This document shows, piece after piece, positions 10,308 through 31,414 of a stretch of 47,205 nucleotides of DNA (within the stretch, counting starts at the first letter, position 1; each line of letters starts with the position of its first letter). The stretch covers positions 1 to 47,205 of the forward strand of contig MNYW01000026.1 of NCBI GenBank assembly GCA_001873295.1. Reading direction: 5' to 3'. The stretch comes from Nitrospirae bacterium CG2_30_70_394. Its GTDB lineage: Bacteria; CG2-30-53-67; CG2-30-70-394. The position numbers and the translations under genes were made by a program. The notes beneath the pieces were generated by a model. It was not told where the DNA came from. It searched no databases and worked only from the letters and a program-made list of their open reading frames with translations.

Positions 10308-10753
10308 CACTCGGTGCACACGGTCTCGTGTTGGTTCTCGATCGCCGCCTTCATCACGTGCCATCCCAAGGTGGCGCACTTGATCCGCATGGGGAACTCG
10401 TGGACTCCGGCGAGGACCGCCAGCTTGCCGAGCGGCGCCGCCGCCTCGCCTTTGTGGGTGAGCAGGTGGTGGACGGACTGGAAGAGGGCCTCCACCTCCG
10501 CAATCGGCTTGCCCTTGATCGCCTCGGTCATCAGCGAGGTTGAGGCGACGGCGATGGCGCAGCCAACGCCTTCGAAGCCGACGTCGGTGACGATGTTGTT
10601 TTCCACCTGGAGGTAGACCGTGAACTCGTCGCCGCACAGGGGGTTGAAGCCGAACGCCTGGTGGTTGGCGCCGCCGGGCTTGTGCTGGAAGTTCCGCGGC
10701 CGGCGGTTGTGGTCGAGGATCACGTCTTCGTAGAGGGCGCGCAGGTCGTTCAT
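10307..10753 (-). CDS. sufU: SufU-type (NifU/IscU-like) sulfur acceptor/scaffold
   Basis: The protein begins MNDLRALYEDVILDHNRRPRNF. It has the three-Cys signature NPLCGDEF, GVGCAIAVAS and RIKCATLGW. The ATG overlaps the sufS stop (ATGA). Confidence 0.9.
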   Translation of the reverse strand: MNDLRALYEDVILDHNRRPRNFQHKPGGANHQAFGFNPLCGDEFTVYLQVENNIVTDVGFEGVGCAIAVASTSLMTEAIKGKPIAEVEALFQSVHHLLTHKGEAAAPLGKLAVLAGVHEFPMRIKCATLGWHVMKAAIENQHETVCTE

Positions 10754-12009
10754 CGTCCGAGTACCTCCTGAACGTGGTGGATCCCGGCTACCAGGCGGTC
10801 GATCTCCGCGCGGCGGTTGTACAACGCGAGGGAGGCGCGGGCGGTGGCGGGGAGGTGGAAGTGGTCCATCACCGGGTGGGCGCAGTGGTGGCCGGCGCGG
10901 ATCGCGATGCCGTCGCGGTCGAGGATGGTGGCGACGTCGTGGGGGTGGGCACCGGCGATCACCATGGAGAGGATGCCGAGTCGCTCCGGCGCGTTGCCGA
11001 TCAGGCGCACGCCGGTGAGCCCGGCGAGTTGGGCGAGGCCGTAGGCGAGGAGGTCTTGCTCGTGGGCAGCGATCCGCTCCCGGCCGAGGGAGTCGAGGTA
11101 GTCCAGCGCCGCGGCCAGCCCGACCGCGCCGGCGACGTTCGGGGTCCCCGCCTCGAAGCGAGCGGGTGGCGGGGCGTAGGTGGTCTCCTCGAAGGTGACG
11201 TGGCGGATCATCTCGCCGCCCCCTTGGTAGGGGGCCATCTGCTCCAAAAGCTCCCGGCGGCCGTAGAGGCAGCCGATCCCCATGGGGCCGTACACCTTGT
11301 GGCCGGAGAAGGCGTAGAAGTCGGCGCCCATGGCGTGCACGTCGACTTCCAGGTGAGCCACGGCCTGGGCGCCGTCCACCAAGAGCAGGGCGCCGGCGGC
11401 GTGGGCGCGCGTGGCGATCTCGCGCACCGGGTTGATCGTGCCGAGGGCGTTGGAGCCGTGGACCACCGCGACCAGGCGGGTGCGCTCGGTGAGCAGCGCG
11501 TCGAGCTTGTCCAGGCGCAGGCAGCCCTGATCGTCCATGGGCAGGACCTTCAAACAGATGCCGAGGCGGTCGCGGAGGAGTTGCCACGGGACGATGTTCG
11601 AGTGGTGCTCCATCTCGGTGATCACCACCTCGTCGCCGGCGGTGAAGCGGTTGCCGAGGGAGGCGGCCACCAGGTTGATCGCCTCGGTGGTACCGCGCAC
11701 GAAGACGATCTCCGCGGCCTCGGCGGCGTGCAGGAAGTGGGCGACTTTGGCGCGCGCCTGCTCGTACGCCTCGGTCGCCCGCTCGGCGAGGGCGTGGACG
11801 CCGCGGTGGACGTTGGCGTTGTCGTGGGCGTAGTAGCGTGCCATCGCCGCGATCACCGCCTGCGGCTTTTGGGTGGTGGCGGCGTTGTCGAGGTAGACGA
11901 GGGGCTGGCCGTGGACCTCTTGATCGAGGCAGGGGAAGTCGGCGCGCACCGCGTCGAGGTCCAGCGGCGGGCGGGTCGGGGGGCGGGGCGCGGCGAGCGG
12001 GCGGGTCAT
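10750..12009 (-). CDS. sufS: Cysteine desulfurase, SufS (group II)
   Basis: Motifs seen: YLDNAATTQKP, PLP-lysine motif FSGHKVYGPMGIG, and active-site loop RAGHHCAHP. The ATG overlaps the sufD stop. Confidence 0.92.
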   Translation of the reverse strand: MTRPLAAPRPPTRPPLDLDAVRADFPCLDQEVHGQPLVYLDNAATTQKPQAVIAAMARYYAHDNANVHRGVHALAERATEAYEQARAKVAHFLHAAEAAEIVFVRGTTEAINLVAASLGNRFTAGDEVVITEMEHHSNIVPWQLLRDRLGICLKVLPMDDQGCLRLDKLDALLTERTRLVAVVHGSNALGTINPVREIATRAHAAGALLLVDGAQAVAHLEVDVHAMGADFYAFSGHKVYGPMGIGCLYGRRELLEQMAPYQGGGEMIRHVTFEETTYAPPPARFEAGTPNVAGAVGLAAALDYLDSLGRERIAAHEQDLLAYGLAQLAGLTGVRLIGNAPERLGILSMVIAGAHPHDVATILDRDGIAIRAGHHCAHPVMDHFHLPATARASLALYNRRAEIDRLVAGIHHVQEVLGR

Positions 12010-25667: not shown

Positions 25668-26879
25668 TTACTCGCCGGTCGCCGCGCGGTGGAGCTTGAT
25701 CTCCACCTTCTCTTCCAAGGTGGCGTAGTACCGCTTGAGGATCTCCACCACCTCGGGACGGGAGAACTCGGGCGGGACGTCCTCGCCCTCGGAGAGCATC
25801 TTCCGCATCTTCGTCCCAGAGAGGAGCATCCGATCCTCCTTGCCGTGCGGGCAGGTCTTCATCGACGCCATGCCATCGCACTTCTTGCAGTAGAAGGTCC
25901 AGTCGATCTTCATCGCCTGGGTCTCCATGGCGCCCTTGGGGATCTCCTCGAAGATCTTGTGGGCGTCGAAGGGGCCGTAGTAGTCGCCGACGCCCGCGTG
26001 GTCCCGTCCGACGAGGAGGTGGGAGCAGCCGTAGTTCTGCCGGAAGAGGGCGTGGAGCAACGCCTCGCGCGGACCGGCGTAGCGCATGTCCAGCGGATAG
26101 CCCGCCTGCACGTAGGTGTCCTTCACGAAGTAGTTCTCGGTCAGGGCGTTGATGCAGTCGCGGCGCACGTCCGCGGGGATGTCACCCGGCTTGAGCTTGC
26201 CGAGGAGCTGGTGGATGAGGACGCCGTCGGTGATCTCGATGGCGATCTTCGCCAGGTACTCGTGGGAGCGGTGCATCGGGTTGCGGGTCTGGAAAGCCGC
26301 CACCGTGTTCCACCCCTTCGACTCGAAGATGGCGCGGGTCTGGGCCGGGGTCATGTAGATCCCCTTGAACTCGGTAGGGAAGCTCCCCTCGGAGAGGACC
26401 TTCACCGGCCCGGCGAGGTTCACCTCCTCCTGCTCCATCACCTTGGCGACCCCGGGATGCTCCATGTCCGTGGTCTTGAAGACGCACTGGCACTCGTGGG
26501 CCTTGTCGATGGTGTACTTCTCCGTGACCTTCATGGTCCCCATGATCTCGCCGCTCTCCTCCTCCACCAGGGCGATCTCCTCGCCGAGCTTGATGGAGTC
26601 CGCCTTGCCCTGGGTGGTGGAGAGGGTGATCGGGATCGGCCAGAAGAGGCCGTTGGCCATCTGGTAGCGGTCGCACACCCCCTGCCAATCCCCCTTGGTC
26701 ATGAACCCTTCCAGGGGGGTGAAGCCGCCGATCCCCATCATGATGAGGTCGCCGGTCTCGCGCGAGGTCATCTTCACCTGGGTGAGCCCCTGCGCCTTTG
26801 CCAACTCCTTCTTTTGGGCATTGCCGGTCAGAAGCAGGGGTTTGAGATCACCTCCACCGTGCGGTCGAACGAGGGCCAT
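25668..26879 (-). CDS. sat: Sulfate adenylyltransferase (ATP sulfurylase), homo-oligomeric Sat type
   Basis: A 403-aa protein starting MALVRPHGG. Motifs seen: [21 protein letters not shown], and a C-terminal Cys/His cluster [16 protein letters not shown]. The strong RBS aaggaga lies 6 nt before the ATG at 26879. Confidence 0.92.
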
Positions 26880-27095
26880 GAGCTTTCTCCTTGTGAACCC
26901 GAGGGGGGTGGTCGCGGCAGGCAGACCACCGCCCCGATTGAACAAAAAGGCCGCGGCAGGGAAGCATGGAGGGGGCTTGTGGGTCAACCCGGAAACGGTG
27001 TCCGTGGCCGCAGGCGCGGACCTTTTCGGCGTTGCGGCAGGCGTGGCCTGGCCCGCGCGACGTGGCCGCCTTGCATTGGCGTGGGGAGCCTGGCT

Positions 27096-27110
27096 ATCGT
27101 CCCGGACGAT
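27096..27110. promoter_or_regulatory. Candidate operator: perfect palindrome ATCGTCC-C-GGACGAT upstream of the second rrf2 gene
   Basis: A 7-bp inverted repeat with a 1-bp spacer, about 43 bp upstream of the ATG at 27153, in the sat/rrf2 divergent region. The functional assignment is inference only. Confidence 0.35.
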
Positions 27111-27152
27111 TCGGATGAATGGTGTCCGATTCCTCTGCGGAGGCCCTCCCCG

Positions 27153-27635
27153 ATGCGTCTTACCAAGGCTGGAGACTACGCCATGCGCGGGCTGATCTAT
27201 CTCGCCCGCCGGCCGCAGGGGGAGTTTTCCCTGGTGGGGAACATCGCCGCTGCGATGGAGGTTCCGGAGAGCTTCCTCGCGAAGATTTTTCAGAATCTGG
27301 CGCGCGCCGGTTTGGTGCGCTCCAACCGCGGCTACGGCGGCGGTTACTGCCTGGCGCGGCCGGCGGCGGCGATCACCCTTTTGGAGGTGATCGAGTGCGT
27401 GGAGGGGCCGATTGTGTTCAACGACTGCACCGACCCGCACGCCGCCGAGGACGAGACGATGGCCTGTACCTCCGCCTGCGGCGCCCAAGGGGTGTGGCAA
27501 GAGGTGCAGGAGGCGGTCCGCGCCATCCTGGAAAAAAAGACCATGGACGAGCTGGCCGCCACCGCCGCGCTGCCCGGTTCCGTTGCTCAGCCGATCACCC
27601 TCGGGCCGCGGCGCTTCGCCCGCCCAGGCCGGTAG
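27153..27635 (+). CDS. Rrf2-family transcriptional regulator (IscR-like)
   Basis: Motifs seen: [18 protein letters not shown], w[42 protein letters not shown], and downstream Cys residues (C..C..C region). Confidence 0.85.
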
Positions 27636-27689
27636 CCACCCCAGTCCATTCACCCCGCTTCCCACACCGGATCGATTCGCAGGAGAGAT

Positions 27690-28904
27690 TTGATGGCCAC
27701 CACCCAGACCCCTGCCCCCCCGCGTCGCATCTACATGGACCACGCGGCCACCGCCCGCCCCCTGCCCGAGGTGGTGGCGGCGATGCTCCCGTACCTGGCG
27801 GAGGAGTACGGCAGCCCGCAGTCGTTCCACCGCCAAGGCAGCGGTCCGGCCCACGCCCTCAAGCGGGCGCGCGAGCAGGTGGGGGGTCTGATCGGGGCGC
27901 CGGCGAGCCAGATCACCTTCACCAGCGGCGGCATCGAGGCGAACAACCTGGCGGTGAAGGGGGCGGCGCTGGCGTATGAGCGGCGCGGCAAGCACATCGT
28001 CACCACCGAGGTGGAGCACTACTCGGTCCACCACTCGGTGAAGTTTCTGGAGAAGCTTGGCTTCGAGACCACCTTGGTGAAGGTCGACGGCTACGGCCGG
28101 GTCGACCCGCAGGCGGTGGTCGACGCCCTGCGCGACGACACGATCTTGGTGAGCGTGCAGCTTGCTAACCAAGAGGTGGGGACCCTTCAGCCGGTGGCTG
28201 AGGTGGCCCGCCTGGTGAAGGCGCACAACAAGCAGATCATCGTCCACACCGACGCCACCTACGCGGTAGGGCAGATCCCGGTGGACGTGGCCACCCTCGG
28301 CGTCGACCTCCTCTCCCTCACCGCCCATCGCTTCTACGGCCCGAAGGGGGCCGGCGCCTTGTACGCCGGCAAGGGGGTGCGCCTGACGCCGCTGATCCAC
28401 GGCGGGGTGCAGGAGAACGGCAAGCGCGCCGGCACCGAGAATGTCCCGGCGATTGTCGGCCTCGGGGTCGCCGCTGAGCGCGCCGCCGCGGAGATGGAGG
28501 CGCGGGTCGAGAAGGTCCGCGGCCTGCGCGATCGGCTGGAGCGTGGCCTCCTCGAACGGATCGAAAACGTGCAGGTGAATGGCCACCCCAGCGAGCGGCT
28601 GCCCGGCTACCTCGACCTCTCCATCGAGGGGATTGAGGGGGAGGGGACCTTGGTACGCCTCGACCTCGACGGCATTGCCGTCGCCTCGGGCTCGGCGTGC
28701 GCCTCCATGGCCCTGAAGGGGTCGCCGGTGCTGCACGCGATCGGCGTCGACGAGGTCCTCGCCCAGGGCTCCATCCTCATCACCCTCGGGATCGACAACA
28801 CCGACGCCGACATCGACGACGCCCTGGAGGAGATCCCCAAGGTGGTGGCGACCCTGCGCGCCATGTCGCCTATCTACGGCAAGCGGAAGCACTACTTCCG
28901 CTGA
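27690..28904 (+). CDS. IscS/NifS-family (class V aminotransferase fold) protein lacking the PLP-binding lysine
   Basis: Motifs seen: [38 protein letters not shown], and the persulfide loop ASGSACAS. Where the family has S-G-H-K-I/V-Y-GPKG, this protein has [10 protein letters not shown] (Arg codon cgc at 28329-28331). Confidence 0.85.
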
Positions 28905-29107
28905 CCGCGCCCCTGGACTCGGGATGACCACGATGCAGACCACAGAAAAACGGCTGGCCGACCGCCGGCGTCTTCTCCACCCACCGGGAGGAGCGGGCTC
29001 CTACCCGCCCCCCCTGGCCGCCGCTGGCTGGTCGGGCCTGTTGCGCCGGCAGGAGCCGGCTCTTCCCTGAACGAGATCCACCCTCCCTAACCCCCAAGGA
29101 GTCCCCC

Positions 29108-29515
29108 ATGCAGCACACCGACTACAGTGCCAAGGTGATCGACCACTTCATGAACCCCCGCAACATGGGCGAGCTTGCCGGGGCGAACGCCGTGGGCACG
29201 GTGGGCAGCCCCGCCTGCGGCGACATGATGGACATCTACCTGAAGGTCGAGGGCGACCAGATTGTCGACGCCTCGTTCAAGACCTTCGGCTGTACCGCCG
29301 CGATCGCGAACAGCTCGATGATGACGGAGATGGTCAAGGGAATGAGCCTCCAGGATGCGGAGAATCTGAAGAATCGCGACATCGAGGCCGCCCTCGACGG
29401 CCTCCCGCCGCACAAGATCCACTGCTCCACCCTCGCCGCCGACGCCCTCCACGAGGCGATCAAGAGCTACAAGGAGCGCCAGGGTGCGACCCAGGGCAAG
29501 GTGGCGGCGTCATGA
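29108..29515 (+). CDS. iscU: IscU/NifU-N type Fe-S scaffold
   Basis: Motifs seen: VIDHFMNPRNMG, GSPACGDMM, FKTFGCTAAIA, and LPPHKIHCSTLA. All three ligand Cys plus the Asp are present. The RBS aaggag lies before the ATG. Confidence 0.9.
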   Translation: MQHTDYSAKVIDHFMNPRNMGELAGANAVGTVGSPACGDMMDIYLKVEGDQIVDASFKTFGCTAAIANSSMMTEMVKGMSLQDAENLKNRDIEAALDGLPPHKIHCSTLAADALHEAIKSYKERQGATQGKVAAS

Positions 29516-29757
29516 GCGAGGCCCCGCTCGCGGTGGACGGCGAGCTCGACACCTTCGGCATGTGCTGCCCGATGCCCATCTACGCCACCTCCCAGAAGTT
29601 GAAGGAGCTGGCCGCCGGGCAGGTACTCAAGGTCTCCTCCGACGACCCGGGGTTCCTCAAGGACCTGCCGGCGTGGTGCAAGCAGACCGGCAACCCGTGT
29701 TTGCGGATCGGTGAAGAGGAGTCCGGGGAGTACGTGGGGTACGTGTGCAAGCAATAG
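29512..29757 (+). CDS. tusA: TusA/SirA-family sulfurtransferase
   Basis: An 81-aa protein with the motif LDTFGMCCPMPI (CPxP). The ATG overlaps the iscU stop (ATGA), indicating translational coupling. Confidence 0.85.
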   Translation: MSEAPLAVDGELDTFGMCCPMPIYATSQKLKELAAGQVLKVSSDDPGFLKDLPAWCKQTGNPCLRIGEEESGEYVGYVCKQ

Positions 29758-29844
29758 CTTTATTCACCCGCCTGGCTCCTCTACCCTCCCCGGGCCGCAC
29801 ATCGCGCGCAAGCGATGGCTCGAAACCTACAGGAGGTGTCCACG

Positions 29845-30219
29845 GTGGAAGCTCAGAAGAAGGTGCTCATCATCCAGACCAGCGGCCTGAAGACACCCGA
29901 GCGGATTCCCGCCCCCTTCTTCATCGCCACCACCGCCGCGGCGATGGACATGGACGCCACCGTGGTCTTCACCATGCAGGGCGCCTCCATTGTCCGGAAG
30001 GGTGCCGCGGAGCGGACCCGGATCAAGGAGGGTGGGGCCACCATCGCCTCCTTCCTAGACCAGGCGATCGAGAGCGGGGTGAAGCTGATGGTGTGTCATC
30101 AGGCCCTGGACTTGGTGGGGATGGAGCCGGACGACTGCATCGAGGCGGTGCAGGAGGTGGTCGGCGCCGCCGCGATGCTCGACATGGCGCTCGAGTCGGA
30201 CATCGTCCTCACCTTCTGA
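29845..30219 (+). CDS. DsrE/DsrF/TusD-family sulfur-relay protein
   Basis: The protein has the family-typical start KKVLIIQTSG, then PFFIATTAAAMDMD, and the conserved-position Cys in LMVCHQALDLVG. GTG at 29845 lies 8 nt after aggagg. The ORF is also open from ATG 29815. Confidence 0.75.
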   Translation: MEAQKKVLIIQTSGLKTPERIPAPFFIATTAAAMDMDATVVFTMQGASIVRKGAAERTRIKEGGATIASFLDQAIESGVKLMVCHQALDLVGMEPDDCIEAVQEVVGAAAMLDMALESDIVLTF

Positions 30220-30291
30220 CGATCGCGCTCGCGCCGCGGGGCAGCTCAAGCGGGCGAAGCGTCGCGTGGGCCCCGCGGGCAGGCAAAAGCG

Positions 30292-30687
30292 GTGGACCAC
30301 CACCACGTCGCCATCGCCCTAATCAGTCGCCACGGCCGCTGGCTGGTGCAGCAGCGGCGCGCCGGCGTCCCTCTCGCTGGGAGCTGGGAGTTTCCTGGCG
30401 GCAAGGTGGAGGCGGGCGAGAGTGGGGCGACCGCCCTCCTGCGTGAGGTGATGGAGGAGGTCGGGATGGCGGTGACGATCGACCGCGCCCTACCTCCGCT
30501 GACCCACGACTACGCCGACCGGCGGGTCACCCTCCACCCCTTCGTCTGCACTGCCACCGATGCGCCGGTGGCGTGCGAGGGCCAGCTCCTCCGCTGGGTG
30601 ACGGCGGAGGAGCTGGCCAACCTAGAGATCCCGGCCGCGAACCGCGCCCTCCTTTCCCACCTGCAAGCAGGGGAGGGCGCGCGCTAA
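30292..30687 (+). CDS. NUDIX hydrolase (MutT-like)
   Basis: The Nudix box is GSWEFPGGKVEAGESGATALLREVMEEVG. Length is 131 aa. The start is GTG. Confidence 0.8.
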   Translation: MDHHHVAIALISRHGRWLVQQRRAGVPLAGSWEFPGGKVEAGESGATALLREVMEEVGMAVTIDRALPPLTHDYADRRVTLHPFVCTATDAPVACEGQLLRWVTAEELANLEIPAANRALLSHLQAGEGAR

Positions 30688-30694
30688 CAGGCGC

Positions 30695-31414
30695 CTACTC
30701 CGCCTGCCCGGCCGGTGGCTCGGCGGCGTCATCGACCATCGGCGCCTCTTCGTTCATCCCCTGCTCGCCCGCACCCTCCAGGGGCGCCGCCGGGGCGCTC
30801 GGCGCCTCGCTCGACTCCACCTTCACCTCCGCCTTCTCGACGATCGCGTCGTAGTGGTACCCCATGCCGAGGTCCTTGTCGCTGGCGAGGGTGCCCACCA
30901 CCAGGACCGTGTCGCCGACCTTGGTGGAGGCGTCGCTGGTGATCACCAGGTCATTCGTCCCGTTGTCCCCGGTGCCGTCTTGGATGTGGTACCAGTTGGT
31001 CCCCATCACCCCCTGCATCGCCTTCACCACCTTGCCGCGCACGGTGACGCTCTTGCCGGCGAGATCGGTCCGCTGGGCGAAGATGTCACGGACGGTGAGG
31101 CCGCCCTCGGCGGGCGTGATCGAGCCGGGGGCGACGGTCACTGAGGCTGGGGTGGACTCCTGTGCCGGGTGCATCCCCGGGGCCATGACGCCCGGAGCGC
31201 CGGCGGCGGGCGCGGTGTTCGGCAGGGTGTTCACCTGCGCCGGCGGGGTCGGGGCGGCGGGGGTGGCCGGAATGACCGGGGCTTCCATCGCCTCGGGTGG
31301 CTCGGCCGTGGGGGTCGAGCCACCCTCAACCTCCTCCTTGGAGGGGACACCACGGTTACAGGCGGTGGCGAGGGTGAAGGTGAGGGCGAGCAAGAGGAGA
31401 GCGAGACGAGTCAC
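30695..31414 (-). CDS. Hypothetical lipoprotein with a P/A-rich linker and an OB-fold-like C-terminal domain
   Basis: GTG at 31414 lies 7 nt after ggagg. The lipobox is LALLLLALTFTLATAC. The C-terminal segment is KSVTVRGKVVKAM...WYHIQDGTG...GDTVLVVGTL. The family is not identified. Confidence 0.6.
   Translation of the reverse strand: MTRLALLLLALTFTLATACNRGVPSKEEVEGGSTPTAEPPEAMEAPVIPATPAAPTPPAQVNTLPNTAPAAGAPGVMAPGMHPAQESTPASVTVAPGSITPAEGGLTVRDIFAQRTDLAGKSVTVRGKVVKAMQGVMGTNWYHIQDGTGDNGTNDLVITSDASTKVGDTVLVVGTLASDKDLGMGYHYDAIVEKAEVKVESSEAPSAPAAPLEGAGEQGMNEEAPMVDDAAEPPAGQAE

Follow-up and report, generated by a model that had tools for sequence, protein, structure and literature searches.

The window analyzed here comprises positions 1-47,205 (forward strand, 47,205 nucleotides) of contig MNYW01000026.1 from the assembly GCA_001873295.1 of Nitrospirae bacterium CG2_30_70_394. 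Within it lies an operon that encodes, in order, an Rrf2-family regulator, a protein of the IscS/NifS type, an IscU-type scaffold for iron-sulfur (Fe-S) clusters, the sulfur carrier TusA, a small DsrE-family protein and a NUDIX hydrolase. In the IscS/NifS-like protein, for which we use the name IscS*, the lysine that binds pyridoxal 5'-phosphate (PLP) in cysteine desulfurases is replaced by arginine, and further residues of the substrate pocket have been lost with it, while the cysteine of the mobile loop is retained. How Fe-S clusters are assembled with an IscS partner that is unable to use cysteine has been an open question since the structures of the Archaeoglobus fulgidus IscS-IscU complex.

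An IscS homologue with a degenerate active site

The iscS* gene occupies 27690..28904 on the + strand. Its product is 404 amino acids long if translated from TTG 27690 and 403 if translated from ATG 27693; the ATG is the likelier start, because it is preceded at 8 nt by the sequence AGGAGA and a database protein of identical sequence has 403 residues. Residue numbers are counted from TTG 27690 throughout, which makes the arginine residue 214 (213 from the ATG). The protein matches PF00266, the profile of the class V aminotransferase fold, with an E-value of 1.6e-65 over residues 14-376, and the match covers positions 1-369 of the 371 in the profile. Its scores fall under all NCBIfam equivalog cut-offs (460 against 530.75 for NifS, TIGR03402; 362 against 548 for IscS, NF010611; 348 against 643 for TIGR02006). 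An AlphaFold2 model predicts an intact fold with confidence (pLDDT 86, pTM 0.86), its uncertain parts being limited to the Cys loop, a second loop and both ends of the chain, the low pLDDT of the Cys loop (residues 336-342) being expected of a mobile element. The model superposes on A. fulgidus IscS and on NFS1/IscS structures with TM-scores of 0.87-0.95.

Positions 28320-28349 have the sequence acc gcc cat cgc ttc tac ggc ccg aag ggg, translated as [10 protein letters not shown]. Its codons CAT CGC (28326..28331, +) encode His213-Arg214, which fall on the His205-Lys206 columns of Escherichia coli IscS. Alignment by MAFFT with the E. coli protein (from NC_000913) places R214 on Lys206 and reveals no lysine nearby that could substitute for it, and HMMER pairs TAHR with the TAHK of the best solved homologue (PDB 9wfe series, 57% identity) in a stretch that is ungapped here. 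The loop cysteine, Cys337 (codon 28698..28700, +), lies in the SGSACAS loop on the Cys328 column and would serve as a persulfide or cluster-ligand residue. His110 (28017-28019, +) and Asp188 (28251-28253, +) preserve the His104 and Asp180 columns, and equivalents of His205 and Thr243 are also present.

The losses extend well beyond the lysine. The substrate-binding Arg354 is replaced by Leu363 (28776..28778, +), a loss that defines the clade described below, and Thr76 is replaced by Ile82 (27933-27935, +), Asn155 by Gln161 (28170-28172, +), Gln183 by Tyr191 (28260-28262, +) and Ser203 by Thr211. The protein thus has the fold, the loop cysteine, His104 and Asp180 of a desulfurase and lacks the Schiff-base lysine, Arg354 and the Thr76, Asn155 and Gln183 residues. 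A preliminary description of this locus had reported the exchange of the Schiff-base lysine for arginine with the loop cysteine kept, a tyrosine (HTDATY) in place of the glutamine, and the retention of the histidine of EVEHYS, the aspartate of HTD and the cysteine of ASGSACAS. All of these assignments hold in the alignment with E. coli IscS, and neither this alignment nor the one with the 9wfe series brings a neighbouring lysine into the PLP site. Its further claim, that classical desulfuration should be impossible, is strengthened, in that Arg354 and three further pocket residues have disappeared as well; the replacements of Arg354, Thr76, Asn155 and Ser203 had been overlooked.

The variability of these columns was assessed by aligning E. 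coli IscS, the 120 best protein matches and 80 loci taken from named genomes. Among the 201 close homologues the Lys206 column holds Q in 130, H in 19, K in 14, A in 10, R in nine and E in six, with others including T, P and S making up the remainder; only 7% of the 200 nearest homologues retain lysine, and most have glutamine. The Arg354 column is dominated by leucine (140) and valine (52), with arginine in five sequences and missing from 196/201. The Cys328, His104 and Asp180 columns are invariant (201/201). The Lys206 column varies freely, unlike that of a catalytic residue.

Could such a protein still be a working PLP enzyme, either a desulfurase or a related lyase, that holds PLP non-covalently and uses Arg214 and His213 in place of the lysine? 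Arginine is unable to form a Schiff base; Arg354 is a leucine here and is missing in nearly all close homologues; Asn155, Gln183 and Thr76 are replaced too; and the lysine column accepts Q, H, A, R, E, T, P, S and other residues. In favour of an enzyme are the equivalents of His104, Asp180, His205 and Thr243, and the few members of the clade that retain lysine. The lysine-less IscS of A. fulgidus does carry pyridoxamine 5'-phosphate (PMP) or PLP non-covalently, but that protein is inactive, and putting the lysine back did not yield a PLP enzyme (PMC8918507). We therefore consider retained PLP catalysis by IscS* highly improbable.

Phylogeny of the lysine-less clade and the origin of the arginine

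Two trees were inferred, one of 234 rows with FastTree and one of 100 rows with IQ-TREE under LG+C20; both retained the trait columns (2 of ~400), which may bias them slightly towards grouping. In the FastTree tree the sequences without Arg354 form a single clade of 108 rows with SH-like support of 97, and 101 of the 108 also lack the lysine. In the IQ-TREE tree the loss of Arg354 is a single change (SH-aLRT 90), and the lysine column accounts for four changes. Six columns have decayed within the clade (Asn155, Gln183, Ser203, His205, Lys206 and Arg354), all of them essentially invariant in the 122 canonical relatives, in which Lys and R354 are each found in 122/122, N155 in 121/122 and Q183 in 118/122. 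Farther away the proportions are inverted: of 149 representatives of 50%-identity clusters, 133 retain both Lys and Arg354, and Arg354 is also gone in 14 of the 16 that are Lys-less.

The clade is taxonomically broad. It comprises sequences from Dehalococcoidia and other Chloroflexota, Nitrospirota-labelled lineages, Planctomycetia, Deltaproteobacteria, Clostridia, Aminicenantes and an Archaeoglobaceae metagenome-assembled genome, whose protein (L030) falls within it. No Asp-type sequence, the state found in A. fulgidus IscS, occurs in the 200 nearest homologues. With IscS* as the query, A. fulgidus IscS (PDB 4eb5) scores 352 bits, as against 289-305 for canonical IscS or NFS1.

These data place IscS* on a branch for which the lysine-less state is the rule and arginine a minor variant. 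The preliminary description had held that a bacterial protein with this exchange and with linkage to TusA and DsrE would stand apart as a case of its own, and this is not supported: most lysine-less members of the clade are bacterial, linkage to TusA, IscU and DsrE is usual among them, and arginine is a minority state at the column (9/110). The arginine is fixed among the nearest orthologues, while the wider clade mostly has glutamine and the sister family histidine; the loss of the lysine is no isolated peculiarity.

The GTDB phylum of the source genome, whose relatives bear the labels Nitrospirae or Nitrospirota at NCBI, contains only 14 species genomes in two families, all of which have a lysine-less IscS*. 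In family f1 (five genomes including the source) the two residues are H-R, with the codon CGC in 5/5; in the sister family f2 they are Q-H, with CAC or CAT. IscS* and its three nearest clusters form a fully supported clade whose sister is a His-bearing clade, with support of 91 in the FastTree tree; that the two families belong to one phylum and have operons of one type agrees with this. Because CAC is converted to CGC by one transition and a Lys codon is at least two changes away from CGC, the arginine of f1 probably derives from histidine and did not replace lysine directly. In the smaller IQ-TREE run the Arg- and His-bearing sequences are not recovered as sisters with support, and we infer the order His to Arg. 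Elsewhere in the clade arginine is encoded by CGT and AGG, and it arose several times independently at the Lys206 column.

These repeated gains (CGC, CGT, AGG) raise the question of whether the arginine is functionally special. Together with His213 and Tyr191, Arg214 might convert the former phosphate or cofactor pocket into an anion site for sulfite, thiosulfate or persulfide, as an adaptation of this sulfur-cycling lineage; Arg-type proteins would in that event work by another mechanism than the Gln-type majority. H-R, Tyr191 and Ile or Ala at position 82 are indeed fixed together over family f1 (42/42 sequences, five genomes), in an organism that has sat, aprA and dsrA. However, at 78-100% identity most residues are conserved anyway (dN ~0.16), so that this co-fixation carries little weight, and the operons of Arg-type proteins have the same content as those of Gln-type and His-type relatives. 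A special function for the arginine seems to us improbable, and Arg214 is more probably a lineage-specific filler of a column freed from the lysine constraint.

Authenticity, selection and expression of iscS*

A sequencing artefact or a decaying pseudogene could also leave a desulfurase homologue without its catalytic residues, and that loss is all that speaks for such an origin. Over 26900-30800 the window agrees at every position with independent contigs assembled from two DNA runs (depth 59 and 96) and from two RNA runs. All sampled words of the stretch recur in 19 DNA runs, which come from 16 groundwater or aquifer studies, and in four metatranscriptome runs; a protein identical to IscS* is found on 73 contigs, and the residues A-H-R occur in 42/42 database sequences of 78-100% identity that cover the site. 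With no variant in the independent DNA and RNA contigs and CGC in all five genomes of the family, the cgc codon read at this position is sound.

The ratio of nonsynonymous to synonymous substitution (dN/dS) of iscS* is 0.19-0.21 against orthologues of 79-80% identity and 0.09 between those orthologues, with dS ~0.8. The gene is under purifying selection and is functional, not decaying. Together with the open frame and the confident fold model, these observations leave an artefact or pseudogene with virtually no chance of being correct; we regard it as already refuted.

The contigs assembled from the RNA libraries extend from 27122 to beyond 30800 and over 27194-30660, so that they begin shortly before rrf2 and take in the operon as far as the NUDIX gene. 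They are a weak hint that rrf2 to NUDIX form a single transcript, with DNA carry-over possible in these contigs.

The operon and its conserved neighbourhood

The first gene of the operon, rrf2 (27153..27635, +, ATG start), encodes a regulator that matches PF02082 (E 1.3e-34) and exceeds the cut-off of TIGR00738 with 111.7 bits. The protein has three cysteines in the usual cluster-binding region with the spacing C-x13-C-x3-C, which is unusual by comparison with the C-x5-C-x5-C of IscR and NsrR. It scores below each of the NCBIfam equivalog cut-offs for IscR, RirA, SufR-like, CymR and NsrR proteins.

Downstream of iscS*, the gene for the IscU-type scaffold (29108..29515, +, 135 aa; PF01592, E 9.3e-49) retains Cys37, Asp39, Cys62, His105 and Cys106. 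It is the most conserved gene of the operon in family f1, at 86-91% identity. Overlapping its stop by 4 nt is tusA (29512..29757, +, 81 aa; PF01206, E 1.7e-20, 73 bits against a cut-off of 28.6), in whose product D13, C19, P20, D51 and W55 are invariant on alignment; the active-site pair Cys19-Pro20, part of the C-P-x-P motif, is so across 37 sequences. The genome has a second tusA outside the operon. The next gene encodes a small sulfur-carrier-like protein of the DsrE family (29815..30219, +, 134 aa; PF02635, E 1.2e-16; PF13686, E 7.8e-18; both exceed the profile cut-offs), in which Cys94 is invariant in 33/33 homologues from related loci; its sole NCBIfam match is to DsrE2 and is sub-threshold, at 50.6 bits against 210. 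No gene for HscA, HscB, ferredoxin (Fdx) or IscA is found in the operon, which contains Rrf2, IscS*, IscU, TusA, DsrE and NUDIX only.

Divergent from the operon is the sulfate adenylyltransferase gene sat (25668..26900, -, upstream end approximate; NF003166, 543 bits, above the cut-off). The order guaA-sat / rrf2-iscS*-iscU-tusA-dsrE, with LemA downstream, is kept in relatives at protein identities of 78-91%, and the operon is syntenic in the five f1 genomes.

The association of these genes was then counted in 80 fetched loci, 75 of them Arg354-less and five canonical. Of the 75 Arg354-less loci 67 have TusA as a neighbour, as against 0/5 of the canonical ones. Over all 80 loci, 68 have a neighbouring IscU, 32 a DsrE-like gene and 27 Rrf2. 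Most of the six canonical representatives looked up sit on contigs of only 1-4 kb that leave hardly any flank to read, and paralogues within the phylum were therefore used as a control. Among the 14 genomes of the source phylum, 12 of 13 lysine-less copies have TusA within 1.5 kb, the 13th being cut by a contig end, as do none of 17 lysine-bearing paralogues, six of which adjoin IscU or NifU. The nominal Fisher p for this contrast, 1.5e-7, is overstated since the genomes are related. In the Archaeoglobaceae locus L030 the order is Rrf2-TusA-IscS*-IscU.

Recurrent neighbours in Chloroflexota and other lineages are rubrerythrin, the [4Fe-4S] enzyme NadA, a flavin reductase-rubredoxin fusion, a MOSC-domain protein and a hemerythrin-like protein, which amount to an iron, redox and Fe-S client context.

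TusA and DsrE-family proteins make up the classical relay of tRNA thiolation and sulfur oxidation. The linkage could thus mean that IscS* is an adaptor or relay for TusA-dependent thiolation (of tRNA to s2U, of molybdenum cofactor or of another thio-cofactor) or for cytoplasmic sulfur trafficking linked to Dsr, Apr and Sat, with IscU as an optional passenger. In parts of the clade (L005, L015, L028, L040 and L054) TusA is a steadier neighbour than IscU, most loci of the sister family read Rrf2-IscS*-(DsrE)-TusA, and the operon of the window diverges from sat in a genome that also has aprA and dsrA. Several features argue for Fe-S assembly instead: the adjacency of IscU in 68/80 loci and its status as the best conserved operon gene in f1, the three-Cys Rrf2 regulator typical of Fe-S homeostasis operons, and the presence of NadA, rubrerythrins and rubredoxin-flavin reductase among the neighbours of the clade. 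Nor does the operon contain a PP-loop thiolase gene. On balance we judge a TusA-centred relay without a primary Fe-S role to be unlikely, though it is the strongest of the competing explanations.

Desulfurases and sulfur metabolism of the source organism

A desulfurase gene elsewhere in the window, sufS (10750..12009, -), exceeds the cut-off of TIGR01979 with 583 bits and, as the preliminary description had noted of its first motif, keeps FSGHKVYG as well as the RAGHHC cysteine. Searches of the genome, which is 94% complete, with PF00266 returned SufS, SerC and GcvPB besides IscS*, so that SufS is the only predicted intact cysteine desulfurase found there. The three genomes of the genus contain no lysine-bearing type I paralogue, whereas the sister genus has them, and in the source genus SufS appears to be the only real desulfurase. 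HscB (PF07743), the only accessory factor searched for genome-wide, gave no match in this 94%-complete genome, while the E. coli control was matched.

The genome carries sat, aprA and dsrA, the last as two partial matches at contig ends, and the organism is predicted on this basis to run a dissimilatory sulfur pathway. A search for DsrD gave no match in any genome, controls included, and is thus uninformative on reductive versus oxidative Dsr.

In other genomes of the phylum (L100/L127, L122 and L123) open frames of ~1130-1160 aa contain a NifS/IscS domain that is canonical and has the lysine. This suggests a fusion protein that ends in a desulfurase domain, comparable to the representative P0198 of 1139 aa.

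Comparison with known systems

The closest precedent is A. fulgidus IscS, which has Asp199 in place of the lysine, is inactive, and provides, through its loop cysteine, the fourth ligand to the [2Fe-2S] cluster that IscU carries (PMC8918507; PMC7585200). The precedent that the preliminary description had cited from Archaeoglobus is real. Sulfide from sulfate reduction has been proposed as the sulfur source in that organism, a question listed as unresolved (PMC8918507). The structures of the A. fulgidus IscS2-IscU pair (PDB 4hvk, 4eb5 and 4eb7, with the D199K variant 4r5f) share the fold of IscS* at 44-47% identity, the highest value among its structural matches. In both systems the lysine is replaced, the loop cysteine is kept, the protein is paired with an IscU-type scaffold, and the host has a dissimilatory sulfur metabolism; the Archaeoglobaceae relative L030, which is within the clade, also has TusA beside IscS*-IscU. 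The two differ in the replacing residue (arginine here, aspartate there), in the bacterial host, in the replacement of Thr76 and Gln183 here, and in the Rrf2, TusA, DsrE-like and NUDIX genes that the operon adds. A. fulgidus IscS2 itself is outside the rows of our trees, and its likeness to IscS* is that of structure match and residue pattern. The locus of the window is an Arg-type, bacterial, sulfur-cycler version of the inactive IscS known from A. fulgidus.

Two further systems have an IscS-like and IscU-like core without HscAB, ferredoxin or IscA, as does this operon. Methanosarcina acetivorans IscS1 lacks the lysine and other PLP-binding residues and has been suggested to act like A. fulgidus IscS (PMC7585200), and the MIS (minimal iron-sulfur) system, composed of MisS and MisU, has been described as able to use sulfide (PMC13066941). 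A literature search returned no paper on a bacterial lysine-less clade or on a link to TusA and DsrE, and the MIS papers that it found, among which the defining one (Garcia et al. 2022) was not included, treat MisS as a cysteine desulfurase.

The E. coli IscS-TusA-TusBCD and IscS-IscU systems bring together the same four families as the operon (IscS, IscU, TusA and the DsrE family, to which TusBCD belongs as DsrEFH-type proteins). The loop cysteine of E. coli IscS is a hub that reaches both TusA and IscU (PMC2854127; PDB 3lvj and 3lvl). Unlike IscS*, E. coli IscS makes the persulfide as well as handing it out; if IscS* cannot, the flow of sulfur must start elsewhere. The E. coli genes are also not in one operon, and the residues that contact TusA are unconserved here.

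The best solved match to IscS* is a 406-aa protein deposited as a cysteine desulfurase (PDB 9wep, 9wer, 9wew, 9wf8, 9wfb, 9wfe and 9wfy; E 1.9e-127, 57% identity). GGIE and TAH-x of IscS* recur in one variant, which is non-canonical at the Gln183 and Arg354 columns, but all seven chains retain the lysine, unlike IscS*. The seven near-identical chains vary exactly at the pocket columns (DH[A/I]AT, GG[T/I]E, HTDA[VQ/AP]S, [S/T]AHK and GS[R/V]), as might be expected of a series engineered to lead from a degenerate pocket to a canonical one or back. No paper describing these structures was returned by the literature search.

A proposed model for sulfur transfer through IscS*

Taken together, these results lead us to propose that IscS* is probably a non-catalytic partner of IscU, of the A. 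fulgidus IscS type, acting in a minimal, chaperone-free Fe-S module that receives its sulfur from outside. The data show the lost residues, the place in the clade, the gene linkage, the purifying selection, the presence in RNA libraries and an intact predicted fold; that IscS* lacks activity, that it binds IscU and TusA and in which direction sulfur flows are inferred from them. IscS* is unlikely to be a desulfurase because the aldimine lysine and the substrate pocket were lost in coordination. It would still work through Cys337, with IscU and TusA, because the loop cysteine is strictly kept, the gene is under purifying selection and the neighbourhood is fixed. Since it should be unable to liberate sulfur from cysteine, the sulfur must come from another source.

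In the proposed mechanism, IscS* descended from a type I cysteine desulfurase and retains the fold, the mobile Cys337 and presumably the IscU-binding surface. Arg214 would preclude the internal aldimine with PLP, and with Leu363, Gln161, Tyr191 and Ile82 in the pocket the cysteine substrate would not be held. Cys337 could then act as a persulfide acceptor and donor, as the fourth cluster ligand for IscU, or as both. Sulfur might reach it by two routes. In the first, sulfane sulfur would pass from Cys94 of the DsrE-like protein and Cys19 of TusA to Cys337 and from there to IscU, and both carriers could be loaded from dissimilatory sulfur metabolism or by SufS; in the second, free sulfide would be the source. 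The Cys-bearing Rrf2 regulator may close a feedback loop.

Several observations weigh against this proposal. Seven members of the Arg354-less clade keep the lysine, and His104, Asp180 and Thr243 are invariant or nearly so in a pocket that is supposedly dead. Because these residues stay fixed, a ligand such as PMP or PLP may still be bound there, which suggests that the pocket may not be simply dead. The genomes behind the neighbourhood counts are related, so that the counts are not independent observations. TusA but no IscU lies beside iscS* in L005, L015, L028, L040, L054, L109, L111, L114 and L117, loci that include the other Arg-type Nitrospirae and most of the sister family, which makes TusA the most constant neighbour; with IscU absent next door there while TusA is present, the Fe-S role could be secondary to a TusA-centred one. 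In E. coli the transfer runs from IscS to TusA, and the opposite direction is a proposal here. The E. coli residues that contact TusA (Trp45, Glu49, Asp52, Arg220 and Arg237) are unconserved even in canonical relatives and provide no docking argument. Finally, the function of IscS*, like that of all bacterial members of the clade, is read from sequence.

A broader proposal, which we advance tentatively and with less confidence than the role of IscS* as an IscU partner, is that the whole clade represents an undescribed, non-cysteine route of Fe-S assembly, widespread in anaerobic and sulfur-cycling bacteria and archaea, in which sulfur would flow from DsrE-like proteins and TusA to the IscS* cysteine and then to IscU, the reverse of the E. 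coli transfer from IscS to TusA. If this is true, an old desulfurase has been reused as a persulfide dock, and the operon described here is a bacterial example, expressed in an aquifer, regulated by an Rrf2 protein and situated beside sat. The substitution of lysine by arginine is by comparison a minor detail; the clade-wide link to TusA and DsrE is part of the main interest and makes these proteins a testable candidate for the missing sulfur supply. An inactive IscS would be no archaeal curiosity but the normal state of a large, mostly bacterial clade tied to TusA and DsrE. As such genes are labelled 'cysteine desulfurase' in databases, metabolic reconstructions credit organisms with a desulfurase that they probably lack.

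Other features of the locus

The NUDIX hydrolase gene (30292..30687, +; PF00293 and PF14815) lies under the same RNA contigs as the rest of the operon. It follows the dsrE-like gene in every f1 genome and has no obvious role in sulfur or Fe-S metabolism.

Horizontal transfer of the operon was considered and found no support: its G+C content of 64-72% is close to that of the window (70%), and it is syntenic over the family. A promoter scan returned no sigma-70-like site upstream of rrf2, a result that is uninformative at 70% G+C.

The spacer between iscS* and iscU (28905-29107) is unusually long at 203 bp and very G+C-rich, and in orthologous operons its length ranges from ~45 to ~220 bp. Short segments also turn up on further contigs of these same metagenomes, and one of the small repeat elements of the genome may lie there.

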